Origin: Candidatus Uhrbacteria bacterium
GTDB taxonomy: Bacteria > Patescibacteriota > Patescibacteriia > UBA9934
Assembly: GCA_943359325.1 (NCBI GenBank)
Contig: CALRHD010000004.1
Coordinates: 5,836 to 69,835, forward strand
Length of the DNA: 64,000 nucleotides
Reading direction: 5' to 3'
Shown: piece by piece, positions 11,041 to 50,447 of the stretch
Position numbering within the stretch: position 1 is the first letter of the stretch
Layout: the number at the start of each line of letters is the position of its first letter
Notes under the pieces: generated by a model
What the model saw: the letters and a program-made list of their open reading frames with translations, nothing else
Databases searched by the model: none
Told to the model about the DNA's origin: nothing
Position numbers and translations under genes: made by a program

Positions 11041-11119
11041 ACGGAAACATTGTAGCAGATAAAACAAGACGCCCGCCCAACCCCGAAGGATTGAGCGAGC
11101 GAGTTTTGTAGCGCGAGAG

Positions 11120-12022: not shown

Positions 12023-12156
12023 GATTGACTCCTGTAAAGCACCAACCTGAGTGGCTGGCTGTCGTACACGCTGGTACGAACGAGCGAAATTATGCCTGAG
12101 GAACAAAATCGTGTCAAACTCTCCATCCCCAACTCAATAAAAAACATAGCGAATAC

Positions 12157-12185
12157 TTGCGAAAAAACACCAAAAATGCTACAAT
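12157..12185 (+). promoter_or_regulatory. sigma70-like promoter TTGCGA-17-TACAAT upstream of the tRNA-Arg/tRNA-His pair
   Basis: Hexamers read directly. 17-nt spacer. The -10 ends about 26 nt before the tRNA 5-prime end. Confidence 0.55.
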
Positions 12186-12211
12186 CGGCAAGCAAAAATC
12201 CTCTTTCTCGT

Positions 12212-12288
12212 GCCCTGATAGCTCAGTTGGATAGAGCAGGGGACTTCTAAGCCCAAGGTCGATGGTTCGATCCCATCTCAGGGCACCA
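12212..12288 (+). tRNA. tRNA-Arg (anticodon UCU)
   Basis: Acceptor GCCCTGA/TCAGGGC, D-arm GCTCAGTTGGATAGAGC, anticodon loop CTTCTAA, T-arm GATGG-TTCGATC-CCATC, CCA encoded. The anticodon stem has only 3 G-C pairs flanked by mismatches. Confidence 0.65.
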
Positions 12289-12345
12289 GAAAGGGGATTC
12301 ATTTGCCAACACTCATTTTTTTGCTACTATTGCGGCTGCAAACAT

Positions 12346-12421
12346 GGCGGTCATGGTGTAACGGTTAGCACTGAAGATTGTGGATCTTCCGGCGTGGGTT
12401 CAACTCCCACTGGTCGCCCCA
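12346..12421 (+). tRNA. tRNA-His (anticodon GUG) with encoded G-1
   Basis: The extra 5-prime G pairs with the discriminator C73, giving the 8-bp acceptor characteristic of tRNA-His. Anticodon stem GAAGA/TCTTC, loop TTGTGGA, T-arm GTGGG-TTCAACT-CCCAC, CCA encoded. Confidence 0.85.
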
Positions 12422-12426
12422 AAAAA

Positions 12427-12453
12427 GAACCTCCCGAGTGGAGGTTCTTTTTT
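12427..12453 (+). terminator. rho-independent terminator after tRNA-His
   Basis: GAACCTCC-cgagt-GGAGGTTC followed by TTTTTT. Confidence 0.8.
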
Positions 12454-12467
12454 ATGCCGAGACTGGT

Positions 12468-13385
12468 TTATTCTCCCTTTCCATGAAACTCCTTGTACAC
12501 CCGCTTGAGTTCTTTGTCGGTAATGTGGGTATAGACCTGCGTCGTCGTAATAGATGAGTGACCAAGGAGCGATTGGACACTGCGAATGTCGGCGCCGTTG
12601 CGAAGGAGATCGGTGGCGTAGGTGTGGCGAAGGGTATGAGGAGTGACGCGCTTGGTGATGCCTGCGCCGCGAGAATAGTGATCGACGAGACGTTGAATAG
12701 AGCGCGAGGTGAGTGGTGCAGCGGCAACGCCCATCTGCGCTCTGTCGTGACGCACAAACAAGTACGGTGATACATCAACACGCTTGGCAAGATATGACTT
12801 TATTGCCTGGCGTGCAGGCTCCGACAAAAATACAATCCGATGTTTACTGCCCTTACCCTTTACCGTAAATTCATCTTGTTTTAAATTCACCTGCTCAATT
12901 GGCAAGTTCGCCAACTCCGACACACGTAAGCCTGTCGAAAATAAGAGTTCAAGAATTGCACTATCGCGAAGCCCAACAATGCTCATGTCTTTTGCAGGCA
13001 GTGCGAGCATTCTCTTCAACTCGTCGGATTCAAGAAAACTTACGTGTCGCGATTCTTGTTTCGCAAGCTCAATCTTTTCCGCTGACAATGACTCAACGTC
13101 ACGCTTCGCTAAGTATTTTAAAAATGCACGAAGCGCGATAAGGTGATAATTCTGCGTATTCTTTTGCAACGTCGCTTCCTCGCGACCAGTAATGCTGCGA
13201 TTAAGGTAGAGTCGAAATCGTCGTACCTGTTCCTCGGTAATTCCTTTTGGCGACACGATTCCCGCCCACGAAAGAAATCGGTGAATATAAAAATGATAAT
13301 TTCGTACTGTTTGCGGCGTTCGACCGCGCTCTATTTCAAGGTAGTCGAGAAACTGTTGAAGATAACGGTCGATCGAAGACGCCAT
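12468..13385 (-). CDS. tyrosine site-specific recombinase, XerC/XerD family
   Basis: 305 aa. N-terminal SAM-like core-binding domain (YLQQFLDYLEIERGRTPQTVRNYHFYI). C-terminal catalytic motifs (HTLRHTYAT...LLGHSSITTTQVYTH). Confidence 0.85.
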   Translation of the reverse strand: MASSIDRYLQQFLDYLEIERGRTPQTVRNYHFYIHRFLSWAGIVSPKGITEEQVRRFRLYLNRSITGREEATLQKNTQNYHLIALRAFLKYLAKRDVESLSAEKIELAKQESRHVSFLESDELKRMLALPAKDMSIVGLRDSAILELLFSTGLRVSELANLPIEQVNLKQDEFTVKGKGSKHRIVFLSEPARQAIKSYLAKRVDVSPYLFVRHDRAQMGVAAAPLTSRSIQRLVDHYSRGAGITKRVTPHTLRHTYATDLLRNGADIRSVQSLLGHSSITTTQVYTHITDKELKRVYKEFHGKGE

Positions 13386-27258: not shown

Positions 27259-28644
27259 ATGAACACCCATGAACTCTGGCAGGCCGTACTCGGAGACCTT
27301 GAGCTGAAGACAAGCAAGGCAAATTTCTCTGCGTGGTTTCATAACACGTTTGTCAGTGAGTATTGTGCCGGCGAAGTGATCATTGGCGTTCCCAACACCA
27401 TTTGTAAGGATTGGATGGAAAAGCGTCACCATCGCGACATTATCGAAGCGATACAGAATGCAACAAACATCGCCGTGCGTAGCCTCGTCTACCGCGTTGA
27501 AACAAAAAACTCCCTCCCCACACCTATTATTCTCCGCGTTGAAACGCCCGTGGCAAAACAGGAGGACTATGGTTTTGTCACCACGCAGGGTGGTGTTGTC
27601 GATGCACCGCCCACAAGCAACATTTCGCTCAACAGCACATACTCATTCAGCAATTTCGTTGTTGGTAAGCAAAACGAGCTCGCGCATGCTGCGGCTCAGG
27701 CCGTTGCCGCACAACCCGGAGGCACCTACAATCCGCTTTTTGTGTATGGCGGTGTCGGACTGGGTAAAACCCATCTTCTTCACGCGATTGCGAATGAAAT
27801 GCGCCGTAAAAACCCGAATGTCCGCGTTGTGTATGTCACCTGCGAGCATTTTACAAACGACTTCATTCACTCCGTCCGTATTGGAAAGGGCAAGGAGTTC
27901 AAAGATCGCTATCGTGGTGCTGATCTGCTCTTAATCGACGATATTCAATTTATTACCGGCAAAGAGGGAACGCAGGAAGAATTTTTTCACACGTTTAACA
28001 CCCTCCACCAAGAAAACAAACAAATCGTCATTTCGTCAGACCGTCCTCCGAAAGCAATCCCGTCACTCGAAAAACGCCTCCAATCGCGCCTTGAGTGGGG
28101 AATGCTCGTCGACGTTGGCACGCCCGACCTTGAAACACGCATCGCGATTCTCCAAAAAAAGTGTATGGAGAAAGGGGTGGCACTCGACCATGAAATTCTG
28201 CACTACGCCGCATCCACAATCTATTCAAACATTCGTGAGCTCGAGGGCGCACTCAATAAAATTATCGCATACCACCAGTTCAAAAACATATTGCCAACGC
28301 TCGAGAGCGTCAAACCCATTCTTGCGAGCTTCGAGTCCGAGAATACAAAAAAAACGGTCACACCACGTCAGCTCATTCACATCGTTTCGGAATATTTCGA
28401 CCTTGCAATAGAAGAAATTCTCGGAAAAAGTCGCGAAAAACGTCTTGCCTTCCCACGACAAATCATCATGTATCTCCTTCGTGAAGAAATGAAGAGTTCG
28501 TATCCGTCGATTGGCAGCGAGCTTGGTGGTCGCGACCATACCACCGCAATGCACGCCTACACAAAAATCTCTGGCCTCATGCATAAGGACGATCGCCTGC
28601 AAAAAGATATGGAGCTAATTAAACAGCGCCTCTACACATCATGA
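27259..28644 (+). CDS. dnaA: chromosomal replication initiator protein DnaA
   Basis: 461 aa. Domain I (MNTHELWQAVLGDLELK), AAA+ Walker A GGVGLGKTHLL, domain IV HTH (MYLLREEMKSSYPSIGSELGGRDHTTAMHA). Confidence 0.95.
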   Translation: MNTHELWQAVLGDLELKTSKANFSAWFHNTFVSEYCAGEVIIGVPNTICKDWMEKRHHRDIIEAIQNATNIAVRSLVYRVETKNSLPTPIILRVETPVAKQEDYGFVTTQGGVVDAPPTSNISLNSTYSFSNFVVGKQNELAHAAAQAVAAQPGGTYNPLFVYGGVGLGKTHLLHAIANEMRRKNPNVRVVYVTCEHFTNDFIHSVRIGKGKEFKDRYRGADLLLIDDIQFITGKEGTQEEFFHTFNTLHQENKQIVISSDRPPKAIPSLEKRLQSRLEWGMLVDVGTPDLETRIAILQKKCMEKGVALDHEILHYAASTIYSNIRELEGALNKIIAYHQFKNILPTLESVKPILASFESENTKKTVTPRQLIHIVSEYFDLAIEEILGKSREKRLAFPRQIIMYLLREEMKSSYPSIGSELGGRDHTTAMHAYTKISGLMHKDDRLQKDMELIKQRLYTS

Positions 28645-28902
28645 CCTATCCACAGAATTTGTGGATAATGCTGTGGGCAACACCGTGTACAACTATGTGT
28701 GTTCGCCTGTGACAGAAAAGCACATAACGTGCGTCGCAAAACATCTCAAGAGTTATCCCTTCCCTCACCACCACATTCATCGCCGCTTACACACAGTCGC
28801 CTACGCCATTTTCAAAAAGCAGAGTAGGCCGGAATCCACTTATGAGACTTATCCCCCTCCTTACAAGTTACTGTTACTAAAAAGTTTTAAAATATCACTC
28901 AC
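28645..28902. other. putative oriC between dnaA and dnaN: DnaA boxes (TATCCACA at 28647, perfect reverse TGTGGATAA at 28660-28668, weaker boxes) plus an AT-rich stretch before dnaN
   Basis: Boxes and the AT-rich tract ttactgttactaaaaagttttaaaatatcac read directly. Position is conserved in many bacteria. Confidence 0.55.
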
Positions 28903-30039
28903 ATGAAATTTTCCTGTACGAGAGAGAACCTTTATCAGGGTCTCGCTATCACAAGTCACCTAGGAGCGAGGGCAGTAAACCTTCCCATTCTTAATAATGT
29001 TCTTTTAAAGGCAGATAACGTCGGACTTAAACTTACTGCAACAACAATAGACCTTACGGTTACCTGTCTTGTTCGCGGAAAAGTCGACCAGCAAGGGGAA
29101 TATACTGTTCCTGCGAAACTTTTTTATGATTACGTGAATCTTTTGCCGAGTGAGCGTGTGGACCTTGATTTGCTCGACAAGGCGATTTCCGTTGTGTGCA
29201 CAGGGTCGAAAACGAAAATCGTTGGTATGCCCGCTGCAGACTTTCCGTTTGTGCCGCAGGTGACGGGAGGAGCGATCTTTCACGTTCCTGTTGCGGCGTT
29301 CGATGTGGCGCTCTCACAGGTGTTATTTGCGATTGCGACAAACGAATCACGACCCGACATTACGGGCGTGTGCATGAAATTTTCGACAGAGGGTGGTATA
29401 CGGACGCTGACGCTTGCGGCGACAGATAGTTATAGGCTCGCAGAGCGTGTTGTGCCTGTTGCGGATGGCGCCGACGACACGCGGCAGATTATCATGCTCG
29501 GGAGAGCGCTCGCTGAGCTTCGTGTGATTTTCAGTGTCCTTCGTGACAGTGTCGACGCACCAGAAAACATAGAACTTGAAGTGACCGACAGTCAGGTTGC
29601 GTTCCGCTTTGGGAACGTTGAACTTATTTCCCGTACTATCGACGGAAAGTATCCTGACTACAAACAGATTATTCCAACAAAATCACAAACTGAGATTATT
29701 TTGTCGCGCCAAGCACTCGTGCAGGCGGTGAAACGGGCAAGCCTCTTCTCGAAAATTGGGCTTTTTGATGTTCGTCTCGAGATTCAGCCCGACGTAAGGG
29801 GTATTGTGCTTTCTGCAACCGATGCAGATAGAGGAGAAAACACCGTGACACTCGAAGGCGACGTGACCGGCCCTGTAAATGTCATGGTTTTGAACTATCG
29901 CTATCTCCTCGACGGCCTGAACGCCATTTCAACCGAAAAAGTTGCCGTTCGCATGGTCGACGGCTTCAGCCCGTGCGTTCTTGTCCCACAGGGCTCAACA
30001 GACGCCTACCTCTACATCATCATGCCGATTCGGCAGTAG
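28903..30039 (+). CDS. dnaN: DNA polymerase III beta sliding clamp
   Basis: 378 aa. Three-domain beta-clamp pattern (MKFSCTRENLYQGLAITSHLGARAVNLPILNNVLLKA...). Confidence 0.9.
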   Translation: MKFSCTRENLYQGLAITSHLGARAVNLPILNNVLLKADNVGLKLTATTIDLTVTCLVRGKVDQQGEYTVPAKLFYDYVNLLPSERVDLDLLDKAISVVCTGSKTKIVGMPAADFPFVPQVTGGAIFHVPVAAFDVALSQVLFAIATNESRPDITGVCMKFSTEGGIRTLTLAATDSYRLAERVVPVADGADDTRQIIMLGRALAELRVIFSVLRDSVDAPENIELEVTDSQVAFRFGNVELISRTIDGKYPDYKQIIPTKSQTEIILSRQALVQAVKRASLFSKIGLFDVRLEIQPDVRGIVLSATDADRGENTVTLEGDVTGPVNVMVLNYRYLLDGLNAISTEKVAVRMVDGFSPCVLVPQGSTDAYLYIIMPIRQ

Positions 30040-40082: not shown

Positions 40083-41115
40083 AACCTACGCGGCCTACGA
40101 CCCCGATGGGGTTGGTTTTCAGATTGAGCATTTGGCGGAGCAAGTGCGCATGGCGTGGCGGGATAGTCGTGGTGTTGCGTTGCCAAGCCGCTACAAGAAA
40201 GTGTCGCGTGTACTTGTTGTCGCGCTCGGAAGTTCGGCATTGAGTGCGGAGTTGCTTGCGTCGGCATTTACAAAAAAACTTTCAGTTCCTGTCGACATTC
40301 TTCGCAGCTATGCACTGCCGTTGTGGGTTGGAAAGGACACACTTATCGTGCTTTTGAGCTTTTCGGGTAGCACTGAAGAAGTTTTATCTGTGGCGCACGA
40401 GGCACGGCGACGTCGGTTGACTGTTGCAGTGTGTACGACAGGTGGTGCGCTTGCGGAAATTGCTGCGGACGCAAAATGGCCGATTATCCATTTTACGTCC
40501 AATGAATTTGCAGGTGAGGCGCGATATGGACAGGGGTTTTCGTCCATGAGTGTACTCGGCATTCTTCGCGCAGCAGGGTTATGCAGTGTTCAGGATGACG
40601 ACGTACGGCGAATGCGCCAAGCAATGGGCGATGTGCTCGATACGTGTGCCGTTGACGTACCAACGAAGGATAATCCTGCGAAAACTGTCGCCGAGGCGCT
40701 CGTTGGTCGCACCGTATTTGTCGTCGGTACAGAACATCTCACTGGCAATACGCGTATTTTCCAAGATCAGATTCACACGAGCGCGAAACAGTTTGCGTTT
40801 TCGCTTCCTGAGTTAAACAACCATTTTCTTGAAGCGTTTACGTTCCCAAAGAATTTTGTGAAAAATATTACGATCGTCATGTTGCGTTCTGCGCACTATG
40901 ATGCCCGTATCCAAAAGCGTTTCGACGTTATCGCGGAAGTATTCGAGACGATGGGCATGGAAGTTGTTGACTATGTCGCAGGAGGCAAAGACGCCATTGA
41001 AGAATGTGCGGAAGTGCTTCAGTTTAGCAGTTTTGTTTCGTACTATCTCGCGATGTGTAATAAAATAAATCCTCGCAATTTGCCTGTTGTCACCGCGTTC
41101 AAAAAACGTTTATAG
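40066..41115 (+). CDS. bifunctional phosphoglucose/phosphomannose isomerase (SIS domain)
   Basis: MLDSHKTYAAYDPDG...VVALGSSALSAELLAS...LLSFSGSTEEVL... is the archaeal-type PGI/PMI pattern. Overlaps the upstream gene by 17 nt. Confidence 0.7.
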   Translation: MLDSHKTYAAYDPDGVGFQIEHLAEQVRMAWRDSRGVALPSRYKKVSRVLVVALGSSALSAELLASAFTKKLSVPVDILRSYALPLWVGKDTLIVLLSFSGSTEEVLSVAHEARRRRLTVAVCTTGGALAEIAADAKWPIIHFTSNEFAGEARYGQGFSSMSVLGILRAAGLCSVQDDDVRRMRQAMGDVLDTCAVDVPTKDNPAKTVAEALVGRTVFVVGTEHLTGNTRIFQDQIHTSAKQFAFSLPELNNHFLEAFTFPKNFVKNITIVMLRSAHYDARIQKRFDVIAEVFETMGMEVVDYVAGGKDAIEECAEVLQFSSFVSYYLAMCNKINPRNLPVVTAFKKRL

Positions 41116-41273
41116 AGCCTGTTTATTATCTTTCTTCCGACTCCCTTTGGCGCTGTTTTGGCTGCAAAATTTTCAGATCTCCTCAACGTAGCTATGGCTA
41201 TGTTTCGTCGATCTTCAAATTTTTCGCTCAAAACATCATCCAAATGTCTCTGGAAGCAAGATTATAAATAGGC

Positions 41274-41319
41274 TCTAAAAGAAGAGGCGCGGCGACTGTA
41301 TTGCTACAGCCACCGCGCC
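41274..41319 (-). terminator. terminator of the 745-aa membrane-protein gene
   Basis: On the minus strand: GGCGCGGTGG-ctgtagcaatacag-TCGCCGCGCC followed by TCTTCTTTT. Confidence 0.5.
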
Positions 41320-41326
41320 ACGATTG

Positions 41327-43561
41327 TCACCCCTTGAACCACCAGCCGCACTCCGCCTTTTTCGTGGCGCACTGCTTGGCGATCTCGACGAACGGGTACT
41401 TGCCATCTTCTGCTGGCATCGTGAGGAGTTCACGGTGTTGTTCAACCTCTTTGCAGAGGTCGATTACATTGCCGTCTGACCTCGGGTCGCTGTACAGGAT
41501 TGGCCCGTATAACGCCTGAGTTTCTGCGAGCTTCCGTGTTGCCACGTTGCACGCGTCGCCGACAGGTTCCTTTTTCTCCGCCAATACAGAGACCGATCGG
41601 TCGCGCAAGGCTTCCCACCGTACCGTATTGTCGACGTAAGTGGCAAAACCACCAGCGGCAACGTTACACTCTGCTGTTTCCTCGTATCCACGACACACCT
41701 TGTACCACCCGTAGCCATTGTGCGCTACAGATACCACGAGACTGGATGCGTAGATCATTATGCCGATTACTCCGATGAGTGGCGCCAGCTTCTTCAGCAT
41801 GGAGACACGTTGTCCTGCGAGGGTCTTTTTCAAGTCCCCCGGAGCATCTTCGGAATCGCCCGCAAGCATACGACTTGCGAGAATCACTGCCAGCCCGAGA
41901 GCCAGCGAAGTGAGTGCCATGGTCGTGAGTGTCCAGAACTTTGGTGCGACCATCGTCAGGATCGCGTACAGAAACGGCGTTGCAAGCACGACGATCATGA
42001 GCGTCCCCGTGATTCGGTGCACACGCGTCGGTACTCCGACCGTTGCTGCATGTCCGACTGCCGCCAGACGGTTGTTGCCCCCTGCCAGACGGAGGAATAA
42101 CCCTGCAAAGTCGTCCGCAGGCCAGAGCAGATGCCCGGCGATGACGGTGACAACCACCGTTTCGACGAGCGTCAGCCACTGAAACTGCCACGCCATTGCC
42201 ACAAGACCGAAGACGAAGATGATCACAGGCAGCACCGAGGTGCTCCATGCAATCACTGCGACTCGTTTCACAATGTCGACGAGGTAACGCCGCCGCCATG
42301 CATCAAACTCCTTGGCGTTGTCGCCCTCGTCCTTGCCACTGGGTGGGGAAGGACGACTGCGTGCCACGTAGATGGCACTCGTGAGATAGGATGCTCCCAC
42401 GAAGAACCAAAACATGATGTTCGCGCCGAGGCCGCTCCATCGCATGAAGTACTCAGCCGGCGAAAGCGCTGCTTTGGACAGCACGCTCTCCGAGGTGAGC
42501 CAGACCCATCGTACTTGCGCCACGGCCAGCACCAAGAGCACAAGGCTCATGAAGCCGACGGGCACACTGTACGTTGCACGACCAGCAGCCAAGACGCTGG
42601 GGTAGACGACGTTCTCCACGTCATCAACTATGGTTTCGATGCCTCCTGGACTGAGAACCTTCTTCAAAGGTCCACGTAGCGCTTCTGGCACGCCCGCTCC
42701 ATTGAAGAAGGCGTCGAACCGATCGACGACTGCAACAGGGATCGATGAACCGTGGCGCCCGTAGTGATCGTTGATGAGGTCGCCGATGAGCGCAACGGTC
42801 TTCGGGTCCTTGAGGAAGTCGACTGGCGTCAGGTGAACAAGATCACCGAGGCGATCGAGTTCACCATTTCCCCAGAACGAGATGAGCTCGTTCATCGATT
42901 CGGCTGCGTTGTGCTGCACGGCTTCAACAGTCGCCTTGCGCAGCTCTGCGGCGATGCCGACAATTGCATACTTGTCGACGCCCGCCCGCTGTTCTTCATC
43001 TGCAAGTTCGGCAAGCCGCTTGTAGATGCTGCGTTGCGGTTTTGCGATGAGCGTGAGCGCATCGATAAATTCCGGTAGGTTCTTCACCGGCGGGGTTGTG
43101 CCGCCTCCGGTTTGGGTTGTGGTGTCCACATTGCCTCCTGAGAGAATGGTGGTGAGTGTTTGTTGGAATGTCGGCTTCATGCCGTCCTCCAGGTTCTTCT
43201 GGTTTGTTGCCGCATTTTGCAGCATCGTGCCAATTGTGATTCTTGCGGCGGGAAACGCCACAACCGCCGTGTTGCGGAGTGCACTGCCTTCGGGCAGCCA
43301 CCGAATTATTGCATCTTCGACAGCCTCGTGAAGTATGAATCGCACCGGAAACGGAACTGCCATATAGGCAGCCGCCGCGATCGCGACCAATTCTTCTGCA
43401 CCTCGGACGAACTCAGGCTTGTAGAAACGGTTCAGTGCCGATGTTGTTGCATCTTCAACAACCTTCGCTCTATTGATCGCTCCTGCAGCGCTGAAGGCCT
43501 TTAGGCCCATGTCTACTGCAAATTTTGTCAGTCGTTCGGCCGGGGTCATTTTTCCAGCCAT
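41327..43561 (-). CDS. large polytopic membrane protein: roughly 340-aa cytoplasmic N-domain, at least 7 TM helices, Cys-rich extracytoplasmic C-terminal domain; GC-rich; possibly T4SS-associated (VirB6/TrbL-like is speculative)
   Basis: 745 aa from ATG 43561 (MAGKMTPAERL...), with AGGAG 7 nt upstream. TM runs include LVLLVLAVAQVRWVWL, IMFWFFVGASYLTSAIYVA, VIIFVFGLVAMAWQF, LMIVVLATPFLYAILTMVA and LIGVIGIMIYASSLVVSVA. C-terminus has 6 Cys (CRGYEETAECN...CNVATRK...CKEV...CATKKAECGWWFKG). Confidence 0.65.
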   Translation of the reverse strand: MAGKMTPAERLTKFAVDMGLKAFSAAGAINRAKVVEDATTSALNRFYKPEFVRGAEELVAIAAAAYMAVPFPVRFILHEAVEDAIIRWLPEGSALRNTAVVAFPAARITIGTMLQNAATNQKNLEDGMKPTFQQTLTTILSGGNVDTTTQTGGGTTPPVKNLPEFIDALTLIAKPQRSIYKRLAELADEEQRAGVDKYAIVGIAAELRKATVEAVQHNAAESMNELISFWGNGELDRLGDLVHLTPVDFLKDPKTVALIGDLINDHYGRHGSSIPVAVVDRFDAFFNGAGVPEALRGPLKKVLSPGGIETIVDDVENVVYPSVLAAGRATYSVPVGFMSLVLLVLAVAQVRWVWLTSESVLSKAALSPAEYFMRWSGLGANIMFWFFVGASYLTSAIYVARSRPSPPSGKDEGDNAKEFDAWRRRYLVDIVKRVAVIAWSTSVLPVIIFVFGLVAMAWQFQWLTLVETVVVTVIAGHLLWPADDFAGLFLRLAGGNNRLAAVGHAATVGVPTRVHRITGTLMIVVLATPFLYAILTMVAPKFWTLTTMALTSLALGLAVILASRMLAGDSEDAPGDLKKTLAGQRVSMLKKLAPLIGVIGIMIYASSLVVSVAHNGYGWYKVCRGYEETAECNVAAGGFATYVDNTVRWEALRDRSVSVLAEKKEPVGDACNVATRKLAETQALYGPILYSDPRSDGNVIDLCKEVEQHRELLTMPAEDGKYPFVEIAKQCATKKAECGWWFKG

Positions 43562-43694
43562 GTTGGCTCCTGTTGTTTGTTTCAAGGGGTGAAAACAGCA
43601 TTCAGCATCGCTGCTGGCTGTCGTTGTGAGGGAACAGAGTCGCCCATGCATTTTACACCAAAAATGGTGAAAAATGTGCATAAAGTGACTGGCA

Positions 43695-43723
43695 AATATA
43701 GCAAAAAAGTGGCTTTTTGTCAA
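43695..43723 (-). promoter_or_regulatory. consensus promoter TTGACA-17-TATATT (minus strand) for the 745-aa membrane-protein gene
   Basis: Read on the reverse complement: ttgacaaaaagccacttttttgctatatt. Confidence 0.6.
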
Positions 43724-43757
43724 TGGGAATAGTGGAGAAATGGAGAAGAGGGAGAGA

Positions 43758-43786
43758 TTGACAAAACCGTCATTTTATGCTATAGT
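43758..43786 (+). promoter_or_regulatory. consensus promoter TTGACA-17-TATAGT (plus strand) for the secreted-protein genes
   Basis: ttgacaaaaccgtcattttatgctatagt. Divergent from the previous promoter. Confidence 0.6.
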
Positions 43787-43876
43787 AAGACGTTGCGAAA
43801 ATGGCTGAAATAGGCCAAAATACAGGCTTTGGGGCCTGTTTCGCAATCCACCCACCCCAAGACCTTAGGAGGCAAC

Positions 43877-44509
43877 ATGTTCGCGATTCTTGTTCTCATT
43901 ACTGGCGCTTTCGCCGAAGACTACGGCACGGGCAATCTGCCGTGCGCCAATGTCGATGCGCCTGCCCCCGTGGTGCTGGTGGCAAAGACCCGCTGGCCAT
44001 TCCGCGCCATCACGGCGCAGATCAACGAGCGGCACGAAAGGCTCGCTTATCAGCACATCGAGGAATGCAGCCGCATTGCGGCGGCGAGTCTCGACAATCA
44101 GGCTGTGCACAATTCGGCCTATCGCATCGCGAATGTCGCGGTGCAGAAGGGGCAGCCTGTCGTTCTCGACGTTGAGAACGGGCGCGTGGTGACGGCCGAC
44201 GCTGCCGTCGCGCACGAATTGCCGGCCAGTGCATTCGGCGGCTACGGATATGGTGGCGGCTACTACGACTCTGAGCCGGGTAGCACGATCGGTCGAGACA
44301 TGGCGTTCATCAACAGCCAATTCGGCGTGGACGTGAGCAATGTTCGCGGCATGAGCGGCCACGGCGGAGGATCGTCCAAGGCAAAAAAGGCTGCGGACGA
44401 AAAAGCCAAGGCTGACGCTGAAGCCGCGGCTGCCAAAACGGCTGCGGACGCAAACGCGGCAAAGGTCGACGCCGCGAACAAGTCGATGGCGCCGATCGAA
44501 GGGAGCTAG
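43877..44509 (+). CDS. secreted hypothetical protein with Gly/Tyr-rich segment and Ala/Lys-rich C-terminus
   Basis: Signal peptide MFAILVLITGAFA. AGGAGG SD 5 nt upstream. 210 aa. GC-rich. Confidence 0.65.
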   Translation: MFAILVLITGAFAEDYGTGNLPCANVDAPAPVVLVAKTRWPFRAITAQINERHERLAYQHIEECSRIAAASLDNQAVHNSAYRIANVAVQKGQPVVLDVENGRVVTADAAVAHELPASAFGGYGYGGGYYDSEPGSTIGRDMAFINSQFGVDVSNVRGMSGHGGGSSKAKKAADEKAKADAEAAAAKTAADANAAKVDAANKSMAPIEGS

Positions 44510-44633
44510 TCACTCCCAACTCTTCCTCCTGCAGTCATCCGAAAGGGTGTACTGCAGGAGGCAGCTCACTCTGCAGAAAAATGTTCTGCATGGCGAGCTG
44601 CCAATCACGGTAGCAACATCTCACGAGGTCAAC

Positions 44634-45179
44634 ATGATTCTTTCACTCCTTTTCTCGCTCATGATACCGGTCGCACCTGCAGCCGACGAAGCGAAGCAAC
44701 CCTGCTATATGAGCGTCTCGATGCCAACGGGGTGCGAAGGCAACGGTGACTGCATGGTCATCGAAAATGCGCACAGCAGCATCGCCATCGCGCCGATCAT
44801 TGAGGGGCTGTGTCCTGTCACTGTCGTGAAAGCGAGTGCGAGCGGTCCGATTCAGGCGATCATCAGCCCGACGAGGGGGAGGAATGGTGCGACCTTCATT
44901 CCCGTCATTCCGCCCCATGGCATCGCGTACATGTTCTTCCCTGCGGGTACGACGCAGTTTCGGATTTCCGGTGTGGCGTATAGTGGCAGCTTTGGTGCTA
45001 CCATGCCCATGAATCAGGGTGGAGTGGCGATCAGCGTCTTCGACGACGACGAAGCGGTCGACATCTCTGATCATCAGCGGGTAGGCAGGTGTCTTTGGCA
45101 GACGATACAGCGTGGCACCAAGAAGGTGCAGTACGGCGCGGTGTGCTCTGGTCCCGAGCTCGAGAAGAGCAGGCGGTAG
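44634..45179 (+). CDS. secreted Cys-containing hypothetical protein
   Basis: Signal peptide MILSLLFSLMIPVAPAADEA. GAGGT SD. 181 aa. Confidence 0.6.
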   Translation: MILSLLFSLMIPVAPAADEAKQPCYMSVSMPTGCEGNGDCMVIENAHSSIAIAPIIEGLCPVTVVKASASGPIQAIISPTRGRNGATFIPVIPPHGIAYMFFPAGTTQFRISGVAYSGSFGATMPMNQGGVAISVFDDDEAVDISDHQRVGRCLWQTIQRGTKKVQYGAVCSGPELEKSRR

Positions 45180-45209
45180 GAGCGAATCGCCATTCTCGGC
45201 GAAACAAAC

Positions 45210-45265
45210 AAGCGGCAGTTGCGTTCTCGGGTCTCCGAGACGCACCTGCCGCTGTTTTCTTTTTT
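45210..45265. terminator. bidirectional terminator between the secreted-protein genes (+) and the pilin array (-)
   Basis: GCGGCAG...(loop)...CTGCCGC followed by TTTTCTTTTTTTT. Confidence 0.6.
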
Positions 45266-45270
45266 TTGGG

Positions 45271-45657
45271 TTAGCCTGTTGACGTTGCCGTACCGAGCTG
45301 GTCGATAACGAACGACGAAATGGCGTAAGCCGAGAGCAAGATGATGAGACCAATGACCGAGTTGAGCAAAATGCCGCGTGCCTTTTTGACGTTGTCTTCG
45401 TTTCCTCCCGCAGTCATCCAGAGGAGTCCTGCGTAGATGATGAGAATGAGGAAGATAACACCGAGGAAGCCGAGCAGTACGCTAATGAGCGAACCGATCG
45501 TCGTTGTGAGACTTCCTGCGTCACCACCAAGACCGGCGGAGTCGTTGACTTCATCGAGCTGGCCTGAGAGGTCAACGGCGTGTGCACTTTGCAGTGCGAT
45601 GGGTGCGAGTGGCAAGGCAGCCATTGCTGCCGCCATGAGTGCGTGTTTGAGCTTCAT
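45271..45657 (-). CDS. TrbC/VirB2-like pilin family protein (paralog 6 of 6)
   Basis: Signal peptide ending AHA. Conserved core LISVLLGFLGVIFLILIIYAGLLWMTAGGNEDNVKKARGILLNSVIGLIILLSAYAISSFVI (two TM helices around the WMTAGGN motif). Confidence 0.7.
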   Translation of the reverse strand: MKLKHALMAAAMAALPLAPIALQSAHAVDLSGQLDEVNDSAGLGGDAGSLTTTIGSLISVLLGFLGVIFLILIIYAGLLWMTAGGNEDNVKKARGILLNSVIGLIILLSAYAISSFVIDQLGTATSTG

Positions 45658-45666
45658 AGCAAAAAA

Positions 45667-46041
45667 TTAATATGTGTTAGTACCTACATAGCGTATCACG
45701 GTTGCCGAAATCGCATAAGAGGATAACACGATTACGAGTCCAATAACCGCGTTGAGCAAAATGCCGCGTGCCTTTTTTACTTGATCGGCGTTCCCTGCAG
45801 CCGTCATCCACAAGAGTCCTGCGTAAATCGTAAGAAAGAGAAAAATAACACCAAGAAATCCGAGCAGTACGCTAATGAGTGTACCGATCATTGGCAGCAA
45901 TCCTTCAGACGAAAATGCGGCGTCTTGCGTTGCACCCGCAGCAACTGTTGCACTGTCGTAACTTATTGCATGCACCAAAAGAGGAGTTGCTGCAACGAAC
46001 AGACAGGCATATAACGTTGCGGTGAGAAGGGGGCGACGCAT
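45667..46041 (-). CDS. TrbC/VirB2-like pilin family protein (paralog 5)
   Basis: Internal ATG (MRRPLLTATLYACLFVAATPLLVHA) chosen to avoid overlap with the upstream paralog. Same conserved core LISVLLGFLGVIFLFLTIYAGLLWMTAAGNADQVKKARGILLNAVIGLVIVLSSYAISA. Confidence 0.7.
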   Translation of the reverse strand: MRRPLLTATLYACLFVAATPLLVHAISYDSATVAAGATQDAAFSSEGLLPMIGTLISVLLGFLGVIFLFLTIYAGLLWMTAAGNADQVKKARGILLNAVIGLVIVLSSYAISATVIRYVGTNTY

Positions 46042-46042
46042 A

Positions 46043-46435
46043 TTACGGTGATCCGTTAATATCTCCAACGGTGAGCGCATTGAAAATCGCCGCAGTGAGC
46101 GCGTACGCTGCAGTAACGATCACAAGACCAATTACAGAATTGACCATTATTTCTCGAGCTTTTTTGACCTGGTCGCTGTTACCTGCCGCAGTCATCCACA
46201 AGAGTCCGGCGTAGAGCATGAGGAGAAGGAATATGACGCCGATCAGCGCAAGAATGGGGGCAATGATGTATGTGCCGATAAAGACGGTAATGCCACCCGT
46301 CGCATTGTTTGTGTCGTAGTTTGCAACCTCTCCAGTGCTAATGAGCCCCGTGTCGCTGAGTGCGATTCTCGCTGAAGCAAGCGCCGGCAGAGAAAGCGTG
46401 AACACGAACAGAAGGGTGACGAGGAGTTTTCGCAT
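46043..46435 (-). CDS. TrbC/VirB2-like pilin family protein (paralog 4)
   Basis: Signal peptide MRKLLVTLLFVFTLSLPALASA. Core ILALIGVIFLLLMLYAGLLWMTAAGNSDQVKKAREIMVNSVIGLVIVTAAYA. Confidence 0.7.
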   Translation of the reverse strand: MRKLLVTLLFVFTLSLPALASARIALSDTGLISTGEVANYDTNNATGGITVFIGTYIIAPILALIGVIFLLLMLYAGLLWMTAAGNSDQVKKAREIMVNSVIGLVIVTAAYALTAAIFNALTVGDINGSP

Positions 46436-46436
46436 A

Positions 46437-46847
46437 CTAGCTTTGTGTCGACGTGATAATGGAGCTAATAACGAAGCTCGCGATGGCGTACGCCGAGAGA
46501 ATAATCGCCAAACCGATGATACCTGCGATAATGAGGTTCTTTGCTTCGGTGACTTTTTCGTCGTTGCCTCCTGCAGTCATCCATTTAAAACCGCCGAGAA
46601 GAATAATGACGACCGCAATAACGCCGAGGAATCCGAGGAGTACACGAATAAGTTGGCCGATGGTCGTTTTGATGTCTGCTTGGCCGAGGCCTGCAGTGTC
46701 GCCGAAGTCGGACGGCAAAATGTCTTCTGCTTCAAGCTGTTGTGCATGTGCAGGAACTGCCTGCATGAGCATTGCACCGCCAAACGGCAGGGCAAGGAGT
46801 GCCGCAACGCTTGCGCCGACCAAGAACCGTGTAAAGGTTTGTGTCAT
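46437..46847 (-). CDS. TrbC/VirB2-like pilin family protein (paralog 3)
   Basis: Signal peptide ending AHA. Core LIRVLLGFLGVIAVVIILLGGFKWMTAGGNDEKVTEAKNLIIAGIIGLAIILSAYAIASFVI. Confidence 0.7.
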   Translation of the reverse strand: MTQTFTRFLVGASVAALLALPFGGAMLMQAVPAHAQQLEAEDILPSDFGDTAGLGQADIKTTIGQLIRVLLGFLGVIAVVIILLGGFKWMTAGGNDEKVTEAKNLIIAGIIGLAIILSAYAIASFVISSIITSTQS

Positions 46848-46890
46848 ACGAAAAAAATAATGAATGGATGTATAAAGTATAGCACATTAA

Positions 46891-47268
46891 CTATAGAGCA
46901 GTCGCACTGCCTGTTGTAAGCGCGTTTATGAGTGCGCTGACAATTGCGTATGCAGCAAACACAACGACAAGTCCGAGTGTTGCCCACACAATAATTTCAC
47001 GACCTTTTTTAATGCGGTCGGGATTTCCGGCACTCGTGAGCCAAAACATGCCACCATAAATAAACATGACAAGTGCGAGCGAACCGATAATAGACAAAAA
47101 GCCTTTGATAACCGTACCGAGAATAATACGCACATCGGTTTCGCCGAGCGGATTGTAGAGTGTGACGTCGGCGGCGTGGACAGGGGAGGCGAAAAGAGAT
47201 CCTGCAAGGCCGGAAACGAGAAAAGAGAAAAGGAGAACGAGGAGTGATGCGGAGAGAAACTTTTTCAT
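46891..47268 (-). CDS. TrbC/VirB2-like pilin family protein (paralog 2, more divergent)
   Basis: Signal peptide MKKFLSASLLVLLFSFLVSGLAGSLFASPVHA. Core FLSIIGSLALVMFIYGGMFWLTSAGNPDRIKKGREIIVWATLGLVVVFAAYAIVSALI. Confidence 0.65.
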   Translation of the reverse strand: MKKFLSASLLVLLFSFLVSGLAGSLFASPVHAADVTLYNPLGETDVRIILGTVIKGFLSIIGSLALVMFIYGGMFWLTSAGNPDRIKKGREIIVWATLGLVVVFAAYAIVSALINALTTGSATAL

Positions 47269-47275
47269 ATCAAAA

Positions 47276-47797
47276 TTATTCTGTCTGTATAATGTCGCTC
47301 GCTTCGGTGCCGATGGTATCTTCTATATTTGTTGTTGCAGGTTCGCCAGTTTTGAGGATGGAAATGACGAGGTTAATGAATGCGTATGCACCAAAGACAA
47401 TGACGAGTCCGATTGCGGCGCCAGTGATAGCATCTTTGCCGCGTTGTACCCGTTCAGGGTAGCCAGCGGAAAGAATCCATTCAAACCCGCCGTATACAAA
47501 TGCGATCAACGCTGCGCTGCCCGAAAGTGCGAGAATAAGATAGCTAATGTTCACCGCTACCTGTAGCGCCTGTTCGACTGTGCACCTTCCTGAATCTTTG
47601 CATGCACAGTGGGCGGTGTCGGCGTCGGTTTCGAATGGCGCGGAACAGATGTTTGCGAAAATAATGCCGTCGCGGCGAATGTCGCTGTATTCGGTGCTGA
47701 TGGTGAGAGCGTGAGCAGAGAATGGAGAAACAAAAAAACCGACGGAGAGAACAAGCCCGAACATGATAGGCGCAAACAAGCGACGGATTGCGTGCAT
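47276..47797 (-). CDS. TrbC/VirB2-like pilin family protein (paralog 1, longest, with Cys-rich insert)
   Basis: Signal peptide ending SAHA. Insert ANICSAPFETDADTAHCACKDSGRCTV. Core LILALSGSAALIAFVYGGFEWILSAGYPERVQRGKDAITGAAIGLVIVFGAYAFINLVISIL. Confidence 0.65.
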   Translation of the reverse strand: MHAIRRLFAPIMFGLVLSVGFFVSPFSAHALTISTEYSDIRRDGIIFANICSAPFETDADTAHCACKDSGRCTVEQALQVAVNISYLILALSGSAALIAFVYGGFEWILSAGYPERVQRGKDAITGAAIGLVIVFGAYAFINLVISILKTGEPATTNIEDTIGTEASDIIQTE

Positions 47798-47839
47798 AAC
47801 TATAAAGAGTATAGCACATCTCTGCTCGCTTCACTGATC

Positions 47840-47970
47840 ACCGAAGTGTGGGGTAGTCCGCTCCTCGCTGCGACCCTCCGAGCCGCAGTCCCTGCAGCAG
47901 GGCCTCGGCGTTACTCGGCCATGGACTGACGGGTCGGGTCTCGCTCGATCGCGAACCACCCCACACTTTT
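47840..47970. repeat. structured GC-rich palindromic element, copy A (roughly 125 nt, closed by agtgtggggt/accccacact), immediately upstream of the pilin operon
   Basis: The core ccgagccgcagtccctgcagcagggcctcggcgttactcggccatggactgacgggtcg is about 80% identical to the reverse complement of 50330-50410. A -10-like TATACT (minus strand) sits about 12 nt upstream of the paralog-1 ATG. Confidence 0.55.
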
Positions 47971-48003
47971 GGTGAGCCTACTCGATACTCGGTTACTTGT
48001 TAC

Positions 48004-49389
48004 TTATTTGTACGTCTGCGCGACAATTCTCGCCGTTGTTTCAATGTCATTTGCAGGGTCTTCTGCACCGCCCAAAATAGTATCGATCAAACTCATCATC
48101 GCATTTTCCATCGCAGCGACGTCGTTTCCGTGGTACCACGTTCGTGCGGTCAAAAGTTGCTCGGCAAAAATGCCCGTGTCTTCGTTATCGAGCGTGTTGT
48201 TAATAAGGCCGCGAAGGGCGGGCGGCTTTCCTGCCTTATCCAAATATGTCTGCACATTTTCCTCTTTTGCTTGGTACTGTAAAAAGTCCCACGCCCAATC
48301 TGCAAATTCGGTGTCTTTTGAAACGCCCTCAACCCAATAATTGGCGATGTTCACCTCGCGGCCGCCGTCGATTTGCGGGAGTTTAGAAATGCCGAAGTTG
48401 AGTTTTGGTGACATGGTACGCAAAAGCGGAATGTCGTAGCTATAGCCGAAGAAAATTGCCGTTTGCCCGTTTGCAAATGCTTGGAGTGAGTTCGGGAACG
48501 AATCATTCCATGTGTAGACTTCTTTTGTGGGATTTGCGAAGTCAGTGAAGAAATTTACGGCGTCAAGACCAGGAAATATGTTGTCGGGCGTGCCGTCGGG
48601 AATGGTGTGGAACGCAACGCGGCCACGGCTGTCCGTCATGTTTGTGCCGTTTTGCATCATGAGGACAGAGAGAATGTCAGTGACACGTTCGACGTTGTCC
48701 GATGTGCCGATTGCGGCGCCCGACTGCGCAATATCGCCCTTGCTGTTGATGTCGGTGAGCTTTATGATGTCGGCCTGAAAGTCTTGCCATGTTGTGGGTG
48801 ACGTTGCTATGCCCGCAGCATTGAACAAATCTTTGTTGACGAACATCGCGAGCGTATCGACCGAAAGCGGAAGGCCGAAAATGCGTTGCTCGGCGTCTAC
48901 ACTCGGGTCGGGTTGATAGTCGCGAACGACGTCTTCAGCGACCACGTCAACAAAGTCATTCTTAAGCGTTTTTTGGCTCATGCCTGGAGTTTCTTTGTTG
49001 ACGATCACCGTTTGCTTGCGAATTGCGCCTTGCGTTTGAAGGAAGCTCACTGTTGTCGATGCGGGCATTGGCATGAGCAGGTTTTTGAATTGCTCGACTT
49101 CGTCGTTATGCACTGCAAAAATATCAGGACCTTCGCCTTCGGCTAATGCGCGCACCAATTCATCTTCGTATTCATCCCCGCGGAGTTTTTTGTAGTTTAT
49201 TTTGACGTTTGGGTGGAGCGCGGTGTAGCTCTTTATGACGTCGCGGAATGCGTCGTCGTTGTCAAAAACGCGCCAGTAAGAAAGCGTAACGTCTTCCAAA
49301 CTACTCTTGTCGGCGGCAGCACCGCAGCCCGACGTAATGAGCAGCGTTCCCAAAAGTGCAAGCGCGGTAAAACGGGCGGAGTAGGTCAT
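48004..49389 (-). CDS. ABC transporter extracellular solute-binding lipoprotein (carbohydrate type, family 1)
   Basis: Lipoprotein signal MTYSARFTALALLGTLLITSGC. 461 aa with a periplasmic-binding-protein fold pattern. Confidence 0.75.
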   Translation of the reverse strand: MTYSARFTALALLGTLLITSGCGAAADKSSLEDVTLSYWRVFDNDDAFRDVIKSYTALHPNVKINYKKLRGDEYEDELVRALAEGEGPDIFAVHNDEVEQFKNLLMPMPASTTVSFLQTQGAIRKQTVIVNKETPGMSQKTLKNDFVDVVAEDVVRDYQPDPSVDAEQRIFGLPLSVDTLAMFVNKDLFNAAGIATSPTTWQDFQADIIKLTDINSKGDIAQSGAAIGTSDNVERVTDILSVLMMQNGTNMTDSRGRVAFHTIPDGTPDNIFPGLDAVNFFTDFANPTKEVYTWNDSFPNSLQAFANGQTAIFFGYSYDIPLLRTMSPKLNFGISKLPQIDGGREVNIANYWVEGVSKDTEFADWAWDFLQYQAKEENVQTYLDKAGKPPALRGLINNTLDNEDTGIFAEQLLTARTWYHGNDVAAMENAMMSLIDTILGGAEDPANDIETTARIVAQTYK

Positions 49390-49394
49390 ACGGG

Positions 49395-50264
49395 TTATTT
49401 CAATGACTGCAAATAGTGCTGCAAATCGTTTTTGACTTCAGGGTGGGTGAGGCCGAGTTCGATCTGCGCGATGATAAATTGGACTTTATTGCCGCAATCG
49501 TAGCGGCGACCGTCGAACTTGCAGCCGTAGAGCGGCTTGCCGTTTTCGAGGTGCGTGGCGAATGCGTCGGCGAGGCGAATTTCTTCATCTTTTCCGGGTT
49601 GCTGTTCGGCGAGAATGCGCAAAATTTCTGGTGTAATGACGTAACGACCGACGACTGCGAGGTTCGACGGCGCGTCGTCAACAGCAGGTTTTTCTACGAA
49701 CTTTTTAATTTCCCATGTGTTTTTGCCCGTTTCAATGCCGCCAATGACGCCATAGCGCGATACTTCTGCGTGCGGTACTTCTTGGATGGCGATCACAGGG
49801 TCGCCGTACTTTTCGAATGTCTTGATAAGCTGGCCAATCGCAGGAACCTTTCCCGTAATAATATCGTCGCCAAAAAGAATTGCAACAGATTCGTCGGCAC
49901 CAATGAACGGTGCGGCGGCGAGCACGGCGTGGCCGTCTCCAAGCGGTTTTTGTTGGCGAACGAATGCAAATTTTGCGAGTTTTCCGACCTCGCGGATTGC
50001 CTCAAGCTCCTTCATTTTATTTTTTTGCTCAAGTCGGTACTCGAGCTCGAAGTTTCGGTCGAAATGGTCCTCAATGGCGCGTTTGCCCATTGCGGTAACG
50101 AAGATAATTTCTTCAATGCCTGCTGCAACAGCTTCCTCTACAATATATTGAATGACGGGTTTGTCGACGACGGGCAACATTTCTTTTGGTTGCGCTTTTG
50201 TGGCAGGGAGAAACCGCGTTCCCATGCCTGCGACGGGAATAATCGCTTTGCGAATTTTTATCAT
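49395..50264 (-). CDS. galU: UTP--glucose-1-phosphate uridylyltransferase
   Basis: MIKIRKAIIPVAGMGTRFLPATKAQPKEMLPVVDKPVIQYIVEEA is the classic GalU N-terminus. Start at the internal ATG at 50264. Confidence 0.9.
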   Translation of the reverse strand: MIKIRKAIIPVAGMGTRFLPATKAQPKEMLPVVDKPVIQYIVEEAVAAGIEEIIFVTAMGKRAIEDHFDRNFELEYRLEQKNKMKELEAIREVGKLAKFAFVRQQKPLGDGHAVLAAAPFIGADESVAILFGDDIITGKVPAIGQLIKTFEKYGDPVIAIQEVPHAEVSRYGVIGGIETGKNTWEIKKFVEKPAVDDAPSNLAVVGRYVITPEILRILAEQQPGKDEEIRLADAFATHLENGKPLYGCKFDGRRYDCGNKVQFIIAQIELGLTHPEVKNDLQHYLQSLK

Positions 50265-50286
50265 ACTTTTTTCAGTATAACGCAAA

Positions 50287-50447
50287 AACTGTACCCGCAC
50301 CATATGTCCTGCGACGTCGTTCGGCACCGCCCGTCGCGCTGAGCGCGACCCGTCAGTCCCTGGCCGGCGTAAGCCGAGGCCTTGCTGTACGGACTGCGGC
50401 TGCGGGGCTGAACAAGGAGCGGGATATGTGGTGCGGGTACAGTTTTA
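50287..50447. repeat. structured GC-rich palindromic element, copy B (roughly 160 nt, closed by a 19-bp inverted repeat aaaactgtacccgcaccatat/atatgtggtgcgggtacagtttt), immediately upstream of galU
   Basis: Core homologous to copy A in inverted orientation. A TATACT on the minus strand about 10 nt upstream of the galU ATG. Confidence 0.55.

Follow-up and report, generated by a model that had tools for sequence, protein, structure and literature searches.

The stretch of DNA analyzed here, referred to as the window, comprises 64,000 nucleotides from a Candidatus Uhrbacteria bacterium (assembly GCA_943359325.1, contig CALRHD010000004.1, positions 5,836 to 69,835), and its positions 41,327 to 45,265 hold a compact block of three divergently transcribed genes: one for a large membrane protein, designated BIG, and, in the opposite direction, two for smaller exported proteins, designated S1 and S2. 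The block faces a row of genes for VirB2-like pilins (Table 1). An earlier reading of the sequence alone (the sequence-only reading) had suggested that the trio is a module acquired horizontally, possibly from a donor of high GC content (an actinobacterial host, for example), which might supply the pilus with a VirB6-like channel or an adhesion component. Judging from the database searches and comparisons of loci presented below, the linkage to the pilin genes holds, horizontal acquisition and VirB6 identity do not, and the function that we put forward for the trio is an unproven proposal.

Table 1. Positions of the genes, leaders, promoters and terminators at the BIG/S1/S2 locus (numbering of the window)
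Feature	Position	Strand	Description
Intrinsic terminator after BIG	41319..41286	-	15-bp GC-rich hairpin, then UCUUCUUUUA (U-tract)
BIG	41327..43561	-	744-aa membrane protein (ORF and hydropathy)
BIG 5' leader, ~127 nt	43562..43694	-	conserved in 8 loci
BIG promoter	43723..43695	-	TTGACA-17-TATATT with TG extension (promoter scan)
S1-S2 promoter	43758..43786	+	TTGACA-17-TATAGT with TG extension (promoter scan)
S1 5' leader, ~84 nt	43787..43876	+	closing helix around one to three hairpins
S1	43877..44509	+	210-aa exported protein
S2	44634..45179	+	181-aa exported protein, 6 conserved Cys
Long hairpin (45206-45257) and T-run	45206..45267	both	S1-S2 terminator on +; pilin operon end on -
Six VirB2-like pilin genes	45271..47797	-	PF18895; convergent with S2

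The transmembrane (TM) segments (seven), the large N-terminal domain (~330 residues here, roughly 340 as first given) and the six-cysteine C-domain first described for BIG were all recovered, but its length of 745 residues was not, the protein having 744 (745 codons including the stop). Its ATG at 43561 stands six bases past a Shine-Dalgarno (SD) sequence, AGGAG. The public record of this gene (P0026, NCBI/ENA) is a model of 784 residues (41327-43681, minus strand) that starts with MHIFHHFW inside the conserved leader, just past the promoter. The start at 43561 is supported by the position of the SD sequence and by the homologues, in which an N-terminal MA- is conserved, and the public gene model, which reads through leader and promoter, is corrected accordingly. 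Hydropathy places the TM segments across residues 332-613, and helices lie at the same places in an AlphaFold2 (AF2) model. Loops with many Lys and Arg residues (401-435, 481-520 and 567-594) alternate with loops that have few, and because these counts fit it, an N-in/C-out topology is predicted, with the ~330-residue N-domain in the cytoplasm and a C-domain of ~130 residues (614-744) outside it; all six cysteines fall within residues 623-738, that is, in the last 122 residues. Residues 58-76 were considered as an eighth TM helix, which would turn the Cys domain to the cytoplasm, and were rejected on account of the Lys/Arg pattern of the loops, which fits seven segments, and of the AF2 model, in which they form a confident helix inside the N-domain bundle. 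The mean pLDDT of that model is 59.9, the helical N-domain reaching 70-88 and the TM and C-terminal parts being poor. Alignment of seven homologues revealed the invariant motifs W480-x2-DD, R513 and RW-x-A-x-RDRS, as well as six cysteines, five of them invariant and one aligned to within 2-3 columns.

The N-termini of S1 (MFAILVLITGAFA followed by ED) and S2 (MILSLLFSLMIPVAPAA followed by DE) are short, hydrophobic and end in Ala-x-Ala. S1 carries two conserved cysteines, a GGYG motif and a C-terminal tail rich in Ala, Lys and Glu, after which every homologue ends in Gly-Ser, and S2 contains the invariant motif FDDD-x3-DI-x2-H. No domain common to the BIG C-domain and either S1 or S2 was detected by hhalign. 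With 11-17 residues, the signal-like N-termini of both proteins are very short, and they are without the positive charge that is usual in such segments; the signal peptides of the pilins differ from them.

Searched as single proteins and as family alignments, BIG, S1 and S2 gave no match in Pfam, NCBIfam, PHROGs, PADLOC or the PDB sequences, and the PDB sequence search with S1 and S2 returned nothing below E = 0.7. The adhesin-type match envisaged for the two secreted proteins was likewise missing from the profile and PDB sequence searches. A HMMER profile of BIG retrieved six proteins in all from 1.84 billion representative proteins, a word-index search with the seven-sequence BIG alignment returned the same three proteins only, and no BIG homologue beyond the clade was found among the 1.84 billion representatives, 185,579 species genomes and 241 million metagenome records. 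For S2, 5.8 billion proteins yielded a family of 14 clusters, and no Pfam domain is present in any of them. Named records of homologues are metagenome-assembled genomes labelled "Patescibacteria group bacterium", whose record names point to groundwater (e.g. Hainich site H52), and the public annotation of the proteins is "hypothetical protein". As far as these searches reach, no relative of any kind has been found for the three protein families or for the leader motif described below. The module occurs in at least six lineages; in all relatives recovered its three genes are together, and their position on the chromosome is the same.

The pilin genes next to the trio were identified by PF18895 (T4SS_pilin; T4SS, type IV secretion system), which all six open reading frames (ORFs) pass with 28.4-40.4 bits at a cut-off of 26.6. 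Wherever DNA beyond S2 is visible (8/8 loci), a convergent PF18895 array lies next to S2: it has six genes in the loci designated L006, L093, L094, L095, L100 and L101, and incomplete, cut-off parts of it are seen in L096 and L099. The common gene order is PGI (or PAP2), BIG, S1 and S2, six pilins, an ABC solute-binding protein (SBP) and a nucleotidyltransferase (NTP-transferase), as judged from the window, L004+L101, L006, L007, L093/L094, L095, L099 and L100. Loci of the window/L004 type and of the L093/L095 type carry the stretch from BIG to the NTP-transferase, intact in both, in opposite orientations between its flanks, which are nifS-fdx-oxidoreductase-PGI at one end and Wzy-PST-SpoIID at the other. 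The linkage to the pilins, a position noticed by the sequence-only reading, was kept through this inversion. The inversion was compared in the window (41327-50327), L093 (6572-15691) and L008. The nearest relative without the module, L010, also lacks the array at this site, and module and array are both absent, within the DNA retrieved, from the site in Patescibacteria with 47% PGI identity.

Two side observations concern the S2/pilin junction. The S2-adjacent pilin gene (45271-45657, minus strand) has the highest or near-highest G+C content at third codon positions (GC3) of the pilins, 0.63 here and ~0.68-0.72 in L006, L093, L095, L099, L100 and L101, and its product is the best conserved of three pilins compared (82% identity to L008). 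Contig L096 (1-2613, GCA_040960175.1) carries pilins and an S2 identical to that of L095; upstream of them lie LysR, CCG-domain and short-chain dehydrogenase genes, not S1 and BIG, and this contig is probably a metagenomic chimera.

The two promoters between BIG and S1 match the consensus at 11 of 12 positions each, with a perfect -35 element, and are the best two matches over the 8 kb scanned, which bears out the divergent near-consensus promoters reported earlier, with 34 bp between the -35 hexamers. Transcription is expected to start near 43688 (-) and 43793 (+). A 29-nt consensus (TTGACAAAAnnnnCATTTTnTGCTAnnnT) is common to both and kept in seven other loci; these are its only two matches in the window, where none is expected by chance. 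Their -10 element, TGCTATAnT, is of the type that also stands before other window genes. Most genes of the window lack an SD sequence and start a few to ~30 nt behind an extended -10 (TGnTAnAnT) with no -35 (for instance at 47816 (-), 46884 (-), 58431 (+), 5906 (+) and 62660 (-)); from these start regions, gene expression in this organism seems to depend for the most part on mRNAs whose leaders are short or absent. The canonical SD sites ascribed to the block are present before BIG and S1 (AGGAG/GGAGG) and are indeed rare elsewhere, a 5-mer SD preceding 2 of 36 other starts, both of them doubtful; the site of S2, GAGG only, is weaker than had been stated. A strong hairpin comparable to the terminator of BIG follows the gene in L001, L004, L007 and L093. 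As for the bidirectional terminator said to be shared with the pilin operon, its S1-S2 side is convincing, while on the minus strand the hairpin has a weaker T-rich stretch, right behind the last pilin gene; relatives have two separate hairpins at this junction. Two Rfam matches below threshold, to "Bacillus-plasmid RNA" over the promoter pair (25.6 bits, cut-off 31; 43716-43774, plus strand) and to the fluoride riboswitch antisense within a pilin gene (22.5 bits, cut-off 34; 46470-46532, plus strand), were taken as chance.

Conservation in the intergenic region between BIG and S1 exceeds that of the proteins. Besides the window, the BIG leader was found in L002, L004-L008 and L093-L095. In transcript order it begins with hairpin 1 (43681-43646) and a pyrimidine-rich anti-SD stretch (~43639-43634), followed by a core at 43629-43588 (UCACAAC-hairpin-UUCACCCCUUGAA), a variable linker and the SD sequence AGGAG (43571-43567). 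The core hairpin is flanked by the motifs UUCACAAC before and UUCACC(C/U)CUUCAA / UUCACCCCUUCAA after it. In its outer stem four of five pairs are changed on both sides with 92.5% of cells paired; none of 500 shuffles reached the paired fraction or the covariation score, 4 of 500 reached the count of pairs changed on both sides, and sliding the partner by 1-3 columns left 20-57% paired. The inner stems differ in sequence between loci and keep their pairing, the folding z-score of the leader is -2.2, and its motif occurs once per locus, always at this site. No Rfam family matched at the gathering score in 41000-48200, and an Rfam scan of the whole window returned tRNAs only. The BIG leader is a conserved structured RNA that is absent from Rfam and whose core hairpin is supported by covariation, compensatory changes having accumulated within a conserved structure. 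RNAalifold on the full leader largely failed, owing to length differences between the sequences. A search with the pattern TTCACAAC-N18-38-TTCACCYCTTCA gave 81 metagenome matches and one viral match, which were taken as chance, since none of the 82 encodes BIG, S1, S2, a pilin or PGI. In minimum free energy (MFE) folds the SD region of BIG is paired with the pyrimidine stretch that precedes the core, which suggests that the leader may control translation by this pairing. The leader of S1 has a closing helix GUUGCGAAA/UUUCGCAAU (GUUACA/UGUGAC in others) with a C-rich stretch and the SD sequence AGGAGG behind it; its closed multi-branch shape appears in single-sequence MFE folds of seven loci, RNAalifold on a MAFFT alignment of these sequences of differing length was not significant, and the energy z-score is only -0.98.

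The base composition of the trio is clearly distinct. The genes for BIG, S1 and S2 have a GC content of 0.571, 0.621 and 0.584, compared with 0.506 for the window, and a GC3 of 0.644, 0.730 and 0.709, compared with 0.522±0.043 for 36 other window genes, of which the highest reaches 0.628 (z = 2.9, 4.9 and 4.4, respectively). The GC-rich block that the sequence-only reading had pointed out was thus confirmed (57-62% GC against 50.6%), with GC3 an outlier in all three genes and codon usage shifted toward GC-ending codons, and the trio displays the atypical composition (GC3 z = 2.9-4.9) by which genomic islands are recognized. Fourfold degenerate sites of the trio are raised in both G and C, whereas those of the pilin genes are raised in C and lowered in G, and the codon fractions of CGG, AGG and CTG increase in the trio from 0.10 to 0.22, from 0.03 to 0.11 and from 0.10 to 0.27, respectively. 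No GC3 enrichment is seen in the genes for trigger factor and polynucleotide phosphorylase (PNPase), which are likely well expressed. The remaining window is ordinary chromosome with polA, pnp, dnaA, dnaN, ruvB and the genes for a class A penicillin-binding protein and trigger factor, among others. Elsewhere, a second GC-rich patch (58.6% GC at 11001-12000) holds an ORF of 328 residues without a family match (region 11120-13385) and adjoins tRNA-Arg, tRNA-His and a tyrosine recombinase gene (12468-13385), with AT-richer DNA beyond; it may be a small integrated element or merely a XerC/D-type gene.

Taken by itself, this composition would suit an island acquired from a high-GC donor, for instance an actinobacterial host, with foreign GC content, SD sites and promoters; in addition to the clear GC and GC3 outliers, the general shift to GC-ending codons, SD-led translation and promoters with both -35 and -10 elements are unusual in this genome. 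The comparison with related genomes makes such an origin extremely unlikely. As the synteny comparison showed, the module and the pilin array occupy the same place in all relatives found, and divergence of BIG is congruent with that of the neighbouring PGI, the identities of the two proteins rising and falling together (BIG/PGI 70/91, 75/94, 35-44/75-80 and 31-36/56-59%), so that neither the absence from the site in close relatives nor the incongruent phylogeny of a recent island was observed. The GC3 excess over neighbouring genes recurs in every lineage at +0.15 to +0.25, where amelioration should have removed it: GC3 of trio and neighbours is 0.81/0.63 in L093, 0.83/0.60 in L095 and 0.85-0.94/0.64-0.70 in L004 and L007, and the excess is also found in L006, L099, L100 and L101. 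The trio borders, which are terminators beside PGI and the pilins, have no mobility gene, integrase, tRNA or repeat, the nearest integrase (12468-13385) lying 28 kb away; no homologue was found in other organisms that could represent a donor; and the -10 element is of the native type. Save for a very old event, horizontal acquisition is rejected on these grounds, because the GC content would have ameliorated and donor homologue, flanking mobility gene and foreign -10 are all wanting. From the genomes compared, the trio is an ancestral module of one small clade of groundwater Patescibacteria, not a recent import.

Descent with the neighbourhood is accompanied by a mosaic pattern of divergence, and the trio evolves several times faster than the neighbour genes. 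Between the window and L001, residues 1-160 of BIG are 18-35% identical, with a synonymous divergence (dS) of 2.3 and a nonsynonymous divergence (dN) of 0.87, while residues 161-744 are 62-100% identical with dS ~0.95, and the adjacent PGI has dS 0.26. Between L093 and L006, PAP2, which abuts BIG, has dS 0.05, and dS along BIG is 0.21, 0.85, 0.52 and 0.45. Silent-site divergence this uneven, with sharp borders, argues for allele exchange by recombination within the clade. A diversity-generating retroelement and a defence system were considered and rejected, no reverse transcriptase or PADLOC match being found near the trio.

GC-biased gene conversion, which would explain a stable and general GC3 excess, is in our view the likeliest cause of it, as we infer from the silent sites. 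The excess might instead result from very high expression, with selection acting on codon usage or on properties of the mRNA, since no other promoters of the window are as strong as those of the trio, canonical SD sites are confined to it there, and its excess is stable across lineages. We consider this distinctly unlikely: G- and C-ending codons are both up, including the rare CGG, AGG and CTG, whereas in the genes of the pilins, which are presumably abundant, C alone is raised and G is lowered, as codon selection would lead one to expect; the genes for trigger factor and PNPase show no enrichment; and the mosaic dS independently favours recombination. The locus is a clean case of a compositional "island" that did not come from horizontal transfer but is a lasting feature of the site itself, with recombination as its probable driver.

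As to function, we tentatively propose, with somewhat less than even confidence, that BIG, S1 and S2 form a lineage-specific envelope complex working with the VirB2-like pilus, because the genes are co-regulated and fast-evolving, encode extracytoplasmic Cys domains and abut the distal end of the array in 8/8 informative loci. BIG, sitting N-in/C-out, would display its disulfide-bonded C-domain outside the cell, and the exported S1 and S2 would bind there. BIG might then be the membrane anchor or assembly platform of the pilus, with S1 and S2 as secreted tip, adhesin or contact subunits, roles analogous to those of VirB6 and VirB5 elsewhere without homology to either; in a structure study of the R388 T4SS, VirB6 is reportedly the platform for VirB5 and VirB2 assembly. 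The fast mosaic evolution would reflect allele exchange within the clade, plausibly selected by contact with host or phage, recombination via GC-biased gene conversion would keep the silent sites GC-rich, and the BIG leader would pair its pyrimidine stretch with the SD sequence to control translation.

Several observations weigh against this proposal. The whole neighbourhood from nifS to SpoIID is syntenic in fairly close relatives (PGI 56-94% identical), and the inverted block also holds the SBP and NTP-transferase genes, so that adjacency to the pilins may be inherited, not functional. The module is confined to a tiny clade and arrays are widespread, hence it cannot be a core pilus component. 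Neither sequence nor profile comparisons relate the trio to any protein of a pilus or T4SS, and the 64-kb window contains no VirB4, VirD4 or VirB6 gene; VirB4, VirD4 and VirB8 domains were found neither in its 39 larger ORFs nor among the genes called in L093 and L095. BIG varies most in its N-domain, predicted to be cytoplasmic, and an adhesin model would not lead one to expect this. Lastly, gene conversion is deduced from mosaic dS and the general GC shift, and the SD-sequestering helix stands on single-sequence MFE folds only.

Many of the same observations speak for the main rival, which we hold to be possible though we lean against it: an envelope or host-contact module independent of the pilus, such as a variable surface antigen, a receptor or a cell-wall complex, whose adjacency to the pilins is inherited synteny. 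This agrees with the conserved nifS-to-SpoIID neighbourhood and the SBP and NTP-transferase genes within the inverted block, with the missing similarity to T4SS or pilus proteins, with promoters, terminators, expression style and composition that are the module's own and unlike those of the pilins, and with relatives that are fairly close, a module far rarer than the arrays and variation of BIG that is greatest in the cytoplasm. It is opposed by the convergence of S2 and the last pilin gene, with terminators shared or abutting in 8/8 informative loci, and by the fact that no locus was found with module or array alone, L010 lacking both at the site.

The proposal of a pilus-associated complex can be extended to a non-homologous VirB6/VirB5 replacement for "orphan" VirB2-like arrays, a hypervariable host-range determinant whose diversity allele exchange would maintain, along with its GC richness by way of biased gene conversion, and which would be switched on by a new class of SD-sequestering leader; in this full form it is unlikely. 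Patescibacteria live attached to host bacteria, and to our knowledge the assembly and contacts of their VirB2-like pilins are not known. As a constant neighbour of the array that has strong promoters, evolves fast and has no known relatives, the trio is a concrete candidate for the parts still missing from pilus assembly or contact, or else for a new surface system. Hypothetical envelope proteins restricted to one lineage are nothing rare in these genomes; what is unusual is that a pilin locus combines a lasting GC3 island and mosaic alleles with an expression regime of its own and with conserved leaders, among them a newly recognized leader RNA, the genome otherwise hardly using leaders or SD sites.

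Among known systems, VirB6-type subunits (PF04610; PrgH of pCF10; TcpH/Tn916 Orf15) resemble BIG in being large and polytopic with soluble extensions and in being encoded beside VirB2-type genes, and with seven TM helices BIG exceeds the five expected at least of a VirB6 protein. BIG has no sequence or profile similarity to them: TrbL/VirB6 (PF04610) was not matched in Pfam by the window protein at E <= 0.1 or by the seven family members at E <= 10, the seven-sequence profile gave hhalign probabilities of 0.09% with PrgH and 0.7% with Tn916 Orf15 (TcpH-type), and diderm VirB6, compared through Pfam and PDB only, gave no match. A fold comparison, with solved VirB6 (TrwI of the R388 T4SS) as the reference, returned no match but says little, since the AF2 model is poor in the TM and C-terminal parts; BIG may still share the fold. 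VirB6 subunits lack a six-Cys extracytoplasmic C-domain and a hypervariable cytoplasmic N-domain, and BIG is not encoded beside virB4 or other T4SS core genes in the window ORFs. S1 and S2 resemble VirB5 minor pilins and tip adhesins in being small exported proteins (~180-210 residues) that evolve fast and whose genes stand between those of a polytopic membrane protein and VirB2-like proteins; they are set apart by the Cys-rich character of S2, by the Ala/Lys-rich tail of S1 and by the lack of any sequence match, no Pfam family, VirB5 included, being hit at E <= 10 by S1 (seven sequences) or S2 (six sequences). The VirB6-like identity suggested for BIG is therefore not supported by the profile comparisons. 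BIG could still be an extremely diverged VirB6/TrbL/PrgH/TcpH channel subunit, with S1 or S2 as a diverged VirB5, given its TcpH-like architecture of a polytopic protein with large soluble extensions, as also in extended VirB6, its place beside VirB2-like genes, and the remark in PMC12102498 that in some classes of Patescibacteria VirB6 is detected seldom or not at all, which is read there as suggesting extreme sequence divergence; in view of the profile results we regard this as very unlikely.

The array itself is similar to the VirB2-like arrays of Patescibacteria treated in the pertinent passages of PMC12102498, which report 2-11 genes per array in 383 assemblies, an essential array in Southlakia epibionticum (one cultivated species tested) and a tendency of T4SS genes to sit near dnaA. 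Like these, it consists of tandem divergent PF18895 paralogues on the chromosome, and dnaA and dnaN at 27259-30039, ~17 kb from it, fit the published nearness to dnaA and the replication origin. The passages of PMC12102498 on VirB2, pilin, VirB6 and cysteine describe no module of the BIG/S1/S2 type beside arrays, and the arrays are widespread whereas the module is confined to one small clade. The BIG leader differs from the known SD-sequestering leaders (translational riboswitches, RNA thermometers and protein-bound leaders) in having no Rfam family and an SD pairing drawn from MFE folds only; it is comparable to them in its length, conservation and covarying hairpin, its invariant single-stranded motifs and its predicted pyrimidine/SD pairing. 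The remaining comparison is with recombination-diversified surface loci in which gene conversion raises GC3. For a genome of such small size, the excess of the trio is unusual in both magnitude and stability, and the comparison is based on dS and codon usage, not on population data; the trio is akin to such loci in its mosaic alleles, uneven dS and sharp borders, and in the general rise of both G and C at its silent sites.

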